From UHGV virus genome UHGV-0026213: 64,000 nucleotides of DNA; one strand, given 5' to 3'. This DNA is from a virus. Position numbers and translations under genes: made by a program. Of this stretch, positions 26,036-26,075 are shown piece after piece. How positions within the stretch are numbered: position 1 is the first letter of the stretch; every line of letters starts with the position of its first letter. The notes under the pieces are model-generated. The model was given only the letters and a program-made list of their open reading frames with translations. It ran no database searches and was not told the DNA's origin.

Positions 26036-26075
26036 CAGATATATATTACCTAGGTGAGAGTTTACGTAATACTCA
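26036..26075 (+). promoter_or_regulatory. promoter-like motif CAGATATATATTACCTAGGTGAGAG plus downstream hairpin
   Basis: Conserved motif upstream of 47-aa gene. Confidence 0.5.

Follow-up and report, generated by a model that had tools for sequence, protein, structure and literature searches.

Candidate early promoters, some with a predicted 5' stem-loop, in an uncultivated relative of the jumbo phage SPN3US

The locus, its phage and five copies of one element

The window (the whole stretch of 64,000 nucleotides (nt) of the virus genome UHGV-0026213 that was analysed) contains five copies of a short AT-rich element, one of which, at position 26036, had been flagged as promoter-like in an initial annotation made from the letters alone. 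The copies, the genes and terminators around them, the structures predicted in their leaders and their counterparts in Salmonella phage SPN3US are collected in Table 1.

Judging from its sequence, the window comes from a phiKZ-like jumbo phage, an uncultivated relative, about 225 kb in size, of SPN3US (Seoulvirus). Nucleotide identity is 74-78% over parts of the window to Seoulvirus (SPN3US and relatives) and to Erwinia jumbo phages such as phiEaH2, and no deposited phage covered the window well in the nucleotide comparison. Pieces of a 225-kb metagenomic viral contig (IMGVR_UViG_3300029126_000001) are 94-98.5% identical to it. The open reading frame (ORF) 30225-32519 encodes a phiKZ-type major capsid protein (Pfam PF25620, PhiKZ_MCP, E = 1e-208), a protein in which SPN3US and phiKZ are themselves only ~24% identical (PMC5105663). 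Both types of phage RNA polymerase (RNAP) are represented, the virion enzyme by an ortholog of SPN3US gp42 and the non-virion enzyme by an ortholog of gp77; this inventory is drawn from the 64-kb window, and the genes for the other subunits lie outside it. In SPN3US, gp42 is a virion RNAP beta' fragment, found in virions by mass spectrometry, gp77 makes up the N-terminal part of the non-virion RNAP beta subunit, and gp35 is also a non-virion RNAP subunit (PMC5105663). Because the capsid, gp42-type and gp77-type proteins are all encoded, the initial suggestion of a phiKZ-like phage with multisubunit polymerases of its own holds.

The element has the layout GATAkATwTTAY-(6 nt)-GAGA, with the core at -18 to -7 from a conserved G in all five copies. 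A 24-column weight matrix was built from the window copies, and both strands of the window (127,954 positions) were scanned. The five plus-strand copies score 24.5-32.7 bits; the next best position scores 14.9 bits. Each held-out copy ranks fifth or better in leave-one-out scans, a second matrix built from other SPN3US sites only returns the same five copies as its top five in the window, and, at the lowest of the leave-one-out scores, the expectation from Markov-1 random windows is 0.11 hits per window. The five-copy motif is genuine and lies far above background and random sequence. The copies initially listed at 17781, 26036, 52848 and 58158, and the variant near 32592 (24-mer start at 32589), were all recovered by the matrix scans. 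A further copy claimed at 37521 was not, the best score in 37480-37560 being -3.8. The 14.9-bit match at 46224 was rejected as a copy; it lies inside a coding region, and the SPN3US-based matrix gives it 12.0 bits, below all five. Rfam and tRNA scans of the window gave no matches.

All five copies are intergenic and oriented with the downstream gene (5/5). Four of them lie outside every ORF of at least 45 amino acids (aa), in a window of which ~6.4% is non-coding, and the remaining copy overlaps only a 47-aa minus-strand ORF that spans the capsid-gene terminator. Every copy is followed by GGAG or AGGAG and a start codon; counted from the conserved G, the predicted leaders of copies 1 to 5 are 54, 50, 31, 54 and 35 nt long, so that the 40-70 nt initially given as the distance to a strong ribosome-binding site was about right. 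The copies had also been placed just after intrinsic terminators. This is the case at 17781, 32589 and 52848 and only loosely so at 26036 (134 nt), and the terminator scan found no terminator just before copy 5 (58158).

Table 1. Positions of the motif copies and associated features (window coordinates unless SPN3US is named)
Feature	Position	Strand	Details
Virion RNAP beta' fragment gene, SPN3US gp42 ortholog	869..2188	+	RNAP beta family phrog_2962, 6e-169; 74% identity to gp42
Intrinsic terminator of upstream internal-head-protein operon	17719..17747	+	13-bp stem and T-run
Promoter copy 1 (candidate)	17781..17804	+	CAGATAGATATTACCTTAGTGAGA; 29.9 bits; predicted +1 = G17801
5'-terminal stem-loop, copy 1 leader (predicted)	17801..17819	+	8 bp from +1; GAGAUUAC-AAU-GUAAUCUU
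Gene behind copy 1, 213 aa	17855..18496	+	no family match; no SPN3US homolog
Intrinsic-terminator-like hairpin, 134 nt upstream of copy 2	25875..25902	+	12-bp stem
Promoter copy 2 (candidate; flagged initially)	26036..26059	+	CAGATATATATTACCTAGGTGAGA; 32.7 bits, top matrix score; predicted +1 = G26056
Weak inverted repeat, copy 2 leader	26058..26074	+	4-bp stem from +3; minimum free energy -2.7 kcal/mol
Gene behind copy 2, 47-aa peptide with hydrophobic segment, SPN3US gp66 ortholog	26106..26249	+	phrog_8574, E = 3e-23; tblastn to SPN3US 65548-65625
Terminator after major capsid gene (30225-32519)	32535..32558	+	terminator scan
Promoter copy 3 (candidate), TATTAT-type variant	32589..32612	+	TGGATAGATATTATTAATGGGAGA; 24.5 bits; leave-one-out rank 5; predicted +1 = G32609
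16-aa ORF MEKIQFKLKICVIIKI behind AAGGAG, between copy 3 and gp76 ortholog	32640..32690	+	kept in close relatives
gp76 ortholog, second ORF after copy 3	32702-33712		precedes gp77 ortholog
SPN3US gp77 ortholog, non-virion RNAP beta N-terminal fragment	33723..35498	+	73% aa identity; phrog_2943, 7e-171
Intrinsic terminator, 16 nt upstream of copy 4	52807..52832	+	terminator scan
Promoter copy 4 (candidate)	52848..52871	+	CAGATATATTTTACTTAGGTGAGA; 31.3 bits; predicted +1 = G52868
5'-terminal stem-loop, copy 4 leader (predicted)	52868..52887	+	8 bp from +1; GAGAGUUA-CAAC-UAACUCUU
Gene behind copy 4, 119-aa helix-turn-helix (HTH) protein, SPN3US gp101 ortholog	52922..53281	+	HTH_37, 2.5e-7; phrog_7126, 1e-31
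Promoter copy 5 (candidate), divergent	58158..58181	+	AAGATATATTTCATCTATGTGAGA; 28.3 bits; predicted +1 = G58178
Palindrome GTGAGAATTCTCAC across predicted start, copy 5	58176..58189	+	only 3 bp as RNA from +1
Gene behind copy 5, 89 aa, SPN3US gp112 ortholog	58213..58482	+	homology; phrog_12339
SPN3US counterpart of copy 1	SPN3US 56293		after gp54 ortholog
SPN3US counterpart of copy 2	SPN3US 65412		before gp66; one base different (GATA for GAGA at +1 to +4)
SPN3US counterpart of copy 3	SPN3US 72485		just after capsid gene
SPN3US counterpart of copy 4	SPN3US 94238		before HTH gene gp101
SPN3US counterpart of copy 5	SPN3US 100814		upstream of gp112; weaker site

Likeness to mapped early promoters of other jumbo phages

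The initial annotation had likened the core of the element to the early-promoter consensus of phiKZ, and the likeness could be found directly in phiKZ DNA. In the first 50 kb of that genome, TATATTAC occurs seven times on the plus strand and not once on the minus strand, and all seven sites are intergenic and continue as N6-G. One of them lies upstream of PHIKZ054, for which a primary start site with an early promoter motif has been reported (PMC8244752). The mapped early consensus of Bacillus phage AR9 is AAATATATATTAT-(6N)-G+1, and transcripts of phiKZ and phiR1-37 also start 6 nt past the element (PMC5312081). A G stands exactly 6 nt past the element in 5/5 window copies and 7/7 phiKZ sites as well as in the AR9 consensus. 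According to a review, a ~10-nt AT-rich motif centred near -10 can be recognised ahead of the early operons of all jumbo phages that encode an RNAP, and in each case with mapped transcripts it has turned out to be the early promoter; rifampicin insensitivity and independence from new protein synthesis have been shown for phiKZ and AR9 only (PMC7598289).

The window elements share with the phiKZ early promoters an identical core, the same 6-nt spacing to G, strand specificity, intergenic position and an A/T-rich upstream tract, and both phages have split beta/beta' genes for two polymerases (PMC8244752, PMC7598289). They differ in that the conserved block is longer in the window, where it includes the 5' GATAkAT, the yTAGGT spacer and GAGA at +1 to +4. 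Many leaders of the window clade also open with a stem-loop, whereas only 2 of the 7 phiKZ leaders checked do so, one being that of PHIKZ054, and host and clade are different. The AR9 early promoters, which were mapped by differential RNA sequencing and are chloramphenicol-independent (PMC5312081), likewise have an AT-rich core, a 6-nt spacer and a G start, and their TATTAT ending is that of window copy 3 and of a palindromic subclass in SPN3US. In contrast to the window phage, AR9 has uracil DNA, no nucleus and a host from another phylum, and a conserved spacer, a GAGA start and a 5' stem have not been reported for it. SPN3US, phiEaH2 and CR5 carry near-identical 24-mers at syntenic positions, the window phage being a separate uncultivated lineage. 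The literature searched contains no description of these sites and no Seoulvirus transcript map; the survey of related phages in the 2016 AR9 genome paper may show a logo.

In every sequence-level point tested, then, the motif agrees with jumbo-phage early promoters, and we consider it probable, with good confidence, that the five elements are early promoters of a Seoulvirus-related phiKZ-like phage, read by the virion-packaged multisubunit RNAP. The reading polymerase, the exact start site and the early timing are what we infer here. By analogy with the mapped phages, the predicted +1 would be the first G of GAGA (Table 1), and host-independent transcription from the motif would be expected from its relatives.

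The core holds a near-consensus -10 hexamer (TATATT), which could make the copies ordinary sigma-70 promoters transcribed by the host RNAP, most plainly at copy 5, where 58139-58167 reads ATGACA-17-TATATT (10/12 matches). Copy 5 is, however, the only one of the five with a -35 partner, the other four not being called by the scan, and a cross-genome alignment of sites contains no conserved -35 hexamer. A conserved spacer and conserved +1 to +4 positions are not sigma-70 traits, and sigma-70-like sites fall below shuffle expectation in this DNA (24 versus 28.7 in 16000-35999, 28 versus 34.5 in 44001-64000). As the layout equals that of the phiKZ and AR9 virion-RNAP promoters, we regard transcription by the host enzyme as highly improbable.

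Promoters of T7-type single-subunit RNAPs (consensus in T7, TAATACGACTCACTATAGGGAGA) also have a conserved block of ~23 nt reaching through +4 and a purine-rich, G(G)GAGA-like start. They were rejected as a model for the window elements, since there is no sequence match upstream of +1 and no single-subunit RNAP gene is annotated in the SPN3US genome; an enzyme of the window type would be multisubunit.

Conservation, synteny and the order of the two polymerases

The whole SPN3US genome was assembled and scanned with the motif matrix. Against the five copies in the window, about 21 sites were counted in SPN3US, a number comparable with the 28-32 in phiKZ and 41 in AR9. About nine of the SPN3US sites are strong and of the window type, and about twelve are of the TATTAT type, many of them palindromic (GAGATA-N5-TATCTC). 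Each of the five window sites has a syntenic counterpart in SPN3US, despite an identity of just 28-79% between the neighbouring proteins.

Other relatives give a similar picture. Salmonella phage SPAsTU has a 24-mer identical to copy 2 at the syntenic site, and copy 5 is identical in a 94%-identical relative. The capsid gene was used to retrieve 18 relatives, phiEaH2-like and CR5-like genomes included, with capsid identities of 60-99%. A motif site lies directly past the capsid gene in 17 of them, and 16 also have the site upstream of the gp66 ortholog. In the cross-genome alignment, conservation extends from about -22 through +7. A search of 2.9 million viral contigs for the exact degenerate 22-mer pattern gave 38 occurrences, which, save for one in a 7.4-kb fragment, all lie in contigs 107-246 kb long.

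The position of the sites relative to the polymerase genes bears on which enzyme reads them. In SPN3US, a motif site lies 46 nt to 2.3 kb upstream of each of gp23, gp34, gp35 and gp77, of which gp35 and gp77 are placed in the non-virion RNAP by PMC5105663 and gp23 and gp34 by RNAP annotation and exclusion. Upstream of the virion RNAP genes gp42, gp218, gp240/241 and gp244, there is no strong site (at least ~18 bits) on the same strand within 10-28 kb; gp218 has a weak 11-bit site 5.7 kb upstream. Sites before the non-virion but not the virion RNAP genes are the pattern expected if the injected enzyme makes the second one. To judge from gene order, window copy 3 fills the same role in the cascade for ORF 33723-35498, the third ORF downstream of it, 1.1 kb away.

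As the phage encodes both enzymes and the early timing is inferred, the elements might instead belong to a later promoter class that the non-virion RNAP reads. In phiKZ, AR9 and 201phi2-1, however, the long conserved AT-rich element marks the early class, the middle and late motifs being short and weak (TATG; AACA-N6-TA/G) and bioinformatically undetectable (PMC7598289, PMC4666361). The sites also precede the non-virion RNAP genes, which are needed before that enzyme exists, and a later class appears distinctly improbable.

The palindromic SPN3US subclass, which scores on both strands, and the HTH gene behind copy 4 raise another question, namely whether some phage DNA-binding protein, such as that HTH protein, uses the motif as its operator, the motif itself being no promoter. 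Beyond the AT run, though, the window copies lack palindromic symmetry, and all copies follow the orientation of the gene at a set distance to the conserved G and the ribosome-binding site. The SPN3US sites that score on both strands between divergent genes also fit bidirectional promoters. An operator in place of a promoter is quite improbable in our view; one that overlaps the promoter may exist. Two palindromic sites in SPN3US, 15610/15613 between the divergent genes gp21 and gp22 and 191598/191601 between the divergent genes gp220 and gp221, have GAGATA-N5-TATCTC around GATATTAT and score on both strands, which suggests bidirectional early promoters. A palindromic variant without a 5' stem also precedes SPN3US gp34/gp35.

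For early promoters of the proposed kind, the leaders are also rather uniform. Across the clade they are 27-64 nt long, mostly 44-64 nt, with a mode of 50-54 nt, and a GACyNT box is present in 20 of 43 leaders compared with 4.7% of random 35-mers. The whole unit of ~80 nt (promoter, leader and ribosome-binding site) recurs, including the GACyNT box and the Shine-Dalgarno sequence. The leaders of hairpin promoters share a box (C/T)GAC(C/T)AT, followed by TTAAyCTAAAGGAG (window 17820-17854, 26075-26105 and 52888-52921). The part adjoining the Shine-Dalgarno sequence is one that we take to resemble the T7 gene 10 translational enhancer.

The gene behind copy 1 (17855-18496) and the second gene behind copy 2 (26304-27119) have no SPN3US homolog despite the syntenic sites; judging from these comparisons, the promoter cassette stays at copies 1 and 2 while its cargo is swapped. 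This, together with the recurrence of the ~80-nt unit with its GACyNT box and Shine-Dalgarno sequence, could be taken to mean that motif and leader form a recombination cassette that marks hot spots of gene exchange and has no transcriptional role. Position-specific conservation, the set orientation and spacing to the start codon and the layout of the mapped phiKZ and AR9 promoters point instead to a function in expression, with cassette exchange as a consequence of the promoter role and not an alternative to it. We consider a cassette of no transcriptional role extremely improbable.

Between copy 3 and the gp76 ortholog, the 16-codon ORF 32640-32690 persists, with some amino acids changed, in relatives that are 84-98% identical. 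At the corresponding place, an 83-aa gene is annotated in SPAsTU, and SPN3US has an unannotated start.

Stem-loops at the predicted 5' end of the transcripts

The initial annotation had placed a hairpin after each copy. Folding of the window leaders gives an 8-bp stem at 17801 and 52868, a marginal one at 26056 and 58178, and no convincing hairpin in the copy 3 leader (32609). In relatives 95% identical to the window, the copy 1 hairpin varies in the loop and keeps its stem, and the copy 4 hairpin differs from that of a 94%-identical relative in each of its four loop bases but in none of its stem.

Clade-wide comparison was more informative. Among 35 unique clade instances of the TATTAC/GAGA type, 69% have an uninterrupted stem of at least 6 bp starting at +1 to +3, compared with 7.8% of shuffles that keep GAGA and 6.0% of 1,857 other genomic GAGA sites; the mean folding energy of +1 to +30 is -5.6 versus -1.8 kcal/mol. 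TATTAT-type sites are generally without a stem. At arm position 5 the pairs are G-C (18), U-A (12), G-U (6) and C-G (2), so that with a fitted pairing register 91% are paired, versus 51% with permuted partners. In a pair-count test on 14 leaders of equal geometry with 500 shuffles, 95.5% of cells are paired versus 81.4% in the shuffles, and the covariation score is 0.353 versus 0.108 (0/500 shuffles reach either value); three pairs vary on both sides, and slid controls give 39-55% pairing. Starts other than GAGA are matched by the 3' arm (GATAGA..TCTATC, GAGCGTTA..TAACGCT, GAACGA..TCGTTC). MAFFT and RNAalifold on 38 unanchored leaders gave no consensus structure, because loop lengths differ and the alignment lost register, and the shuffle, GAGA-site, anchored-permutation and equal-geometry tests were used instead. 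To judge from these tests, a stem at +1 is systematic across the clade for the TATTAC/GAGA type.

A G-U pair stands first in 26 of 43 leaders, and G-U pairing as frequent as this is in keeping with an RNA structure formed by the sense strand. The stems could act in some way other than as a 5'-terminal structure, as a promoter-proximal attenuator or pause site, or as an N4-like DNA hairpin that aids the polymerase. The 3' arm is indeed usually followed by UUU(U)A, some phiKZ 5' leaders end early at terminators (PMC10914365), and one SPN3US site, at 165686, has a true terminator directly after its stem. An intrinsic terminator would, however, have a G+C-rich stem and a run of at least 5 T, whereas these stems are rich in A and U (-3 to -9 kcal/mol) and no more than 3-4 U follow, and the leader stems are not called by the terminator scan that finds true terminators nearby; on the DNA level, the G-U pairs would be C-A mismatches on the opposite strand. 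Such alternative actions seem to us unlikely. N4 promoters have their hairpins upstream of the start, and the enzyme that reads them consists of a single subunit. An N4-type DNA hairpin promoter was rejected for the window elements, as the inverted repeat lies downstream of the predicted +1, the G-U pairs favour RNA and the polymerase genes are multisubunit.

The SPN3US stretch 165686-165760, between gp179 and gp180, consists of a full-strength motif copy, a stem from +3 in the predicted fold, and a G+C-rich hairpin with a T-run. It is predicted to yield a stand-alone RNA of ~50 nt or a mostly terminating leader.

Taking the predicted G as the start, the stem would lie within ~0-2 nt of the 5' end in 2 of 5 window leaders and in 69% of the clade instances. 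In this the leaders would resemble the 5'-terminal stabilisers of E. coli (ompA, papA type), which combine a stem-loop, no or very few unpaired 5' nucleotides, a single-stranded AU-rich leader and a ribosome-binding site (PMC3997798). The phage elements differ in that the 5' arm is the conserved initially transcribed sequence of a promoter and the element is repeated at many genes, stabilisation being proposed here. The early leader of the phiKZ nuclear-shell gene PHIKZ054 (45568-45610) has a strong stem from +1 (-8.8 kcal/mol), and most other phiKZ leaders checked are without one.

Proposed mechanism and further observations

If the elements are early promoters, the injected virion RNAP would recognise a region from about -34 to +4 and start at G. 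The parts of the promoter would be an A/T-rich tract at about -34 to -22, the core GATAkATwTTAY at -18 to -7, a 6-nt spacer, usually yTAGGT, and the start G(AGA). The operon driven by each promoter would be short and preceded by a leader of ~30-55 nt that carries a strong Shine-Dalgarno sequence. One operon includes the gene for the non-virion RNAP beta fragment, so that the second polymerase would be a product of the injected enzyme and would then take over.

In the TATTAC/GAGA subclass, the first 17-21 transcribed bases would usually fold into a stem-loop from +1. With no single-stranded 5' end left, RppH and 5'-end-dependent RNase E could not begin the decay of the earliest mRNAs. E. coli RppH needs unpaired 5' nucleotides. 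The same need is stated for the Bacillus enzyme (PMC3997798), and 5'-terminal base pairing hinders 5'-end-dependent decay in E. coli, according to Emory, Bouvet and Belasco (1992) as cited there (PMC3997798). The infection vesicle is where early jumbo-phage mRNAs arise, and they have to work in the host cytoplasm (PMC13282480), which makes protection of the first messages plausible. A stabilising role is thus also what we infer: by analogy, protection of early mRNA at its 5' end would be the most likely role of the stem, and attenuation, aid to promoter escape and a DNA-level structure are less well supported.

It is a more speculative step, and one that we regard as doubtful, to propose that the +1 stem-loop is a selected, integral part of the TATTAC-yTAGGT-GAGA subclass, a structural 5' cap, and that the TATTAT subclass stands apart from it, giving two functional kinds of promoter. 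If this were true, the cap would mark the very first phage mRNAs and might shield them from 5'-end-dependent host decay at a time when the phage has no other countermeasures, assist promoter escape or serve in handling RNA out of the early infection vesicle. The TATTAT subclass, which is often palindromic and has a short, stemless leader, would then act for genes such as those of the non-virion RNAP.

Several points weigh against the reading of the elements as early promoters with a 5' stem. The start sites are assigned purely by analogy, and the literature searched gives no transcript 5' ends, timing or rifampicin data for any Seoulvirus. The folding energies of the window leaders are not significantly below those of shuffles (z from -1.5 to +0.6), and because of this the hairpin is unproven by the window alone; a clear stem is seen in only 2 of 5 window leaders, and the most divergent copy (32589), the one before the non-virion RNAP gene, has no hairpin. 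Among 15 leaders of gp66-site orthologs, three from CR5-like phages have a stem that starts only at +5, and another three, that of the window lineage among them, have a weak stem or none, and the stem is therefore not obligatory; leaders of other phages orthologous to copy 2 have stems of 6-9 bp from +1. The clade instances are also kin, so that their counts overstate the number of independent events, and the register of the permutation test was fitted.

The promoter type itself is expected for phiKZ-like phages, the less familiar detail being the many transcripts that would open with a small hairpin. What the clade appears to add is the systematic +1 stem, a pair of subclasses and the uniform leader, none of them a surprise, and current views are not overturned; the finding is of use in annotation and for the question of mRNA 5' protection. 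The sites amount to a ready map of early transcription units for uncultivated enterobacterial jumbo phages and for the cultivable SPN3US, for which no published promoter map was found in the literature searched. The TATATTAC-N6-G core is common to phiKZ and to phages with ~24% capsid identity to it, and a core shared over such distances constrains DNA recognition by the virion polymerase, an enzyme for which we know of no sigma-like factor. The recurrent, covarying stem at +1 provides a testable hypothesis for the survival of the first phage messages in the host cytoplasm, and the ~80-nt unit could serve in the engineering of such phages.

Terminator-like hairpins are frequent in the window, at about twice shuffle expectation in 16000-35999 (45 versus 19.5) and about 1.5 times in 44001-64000 (30 versus 19.5). 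The terminator 52807-52832 has a stem identical to that of a 94%-identical relative, and its 4-nt loop is reverse-complemented there (GTTG versus CAAC), which on sequence grounds is the signature of a hairpin-loop inversion. Finally, a 58-nt direct repeat (27370-27427 and 27690-27747, 86% identity) contains two hairpins in each copy, and the differences between the copies are compensatory (ATC/GAT versus AAC/GTT; GGGAC/GTCCC versus GAGAC/GTCTC). The repeats lie among the small ORFs 27196-27396, 27483-27653 and 27753-27968, none of which matches a PHROG family, and terminator-like hairpins crowd both strands of this region.

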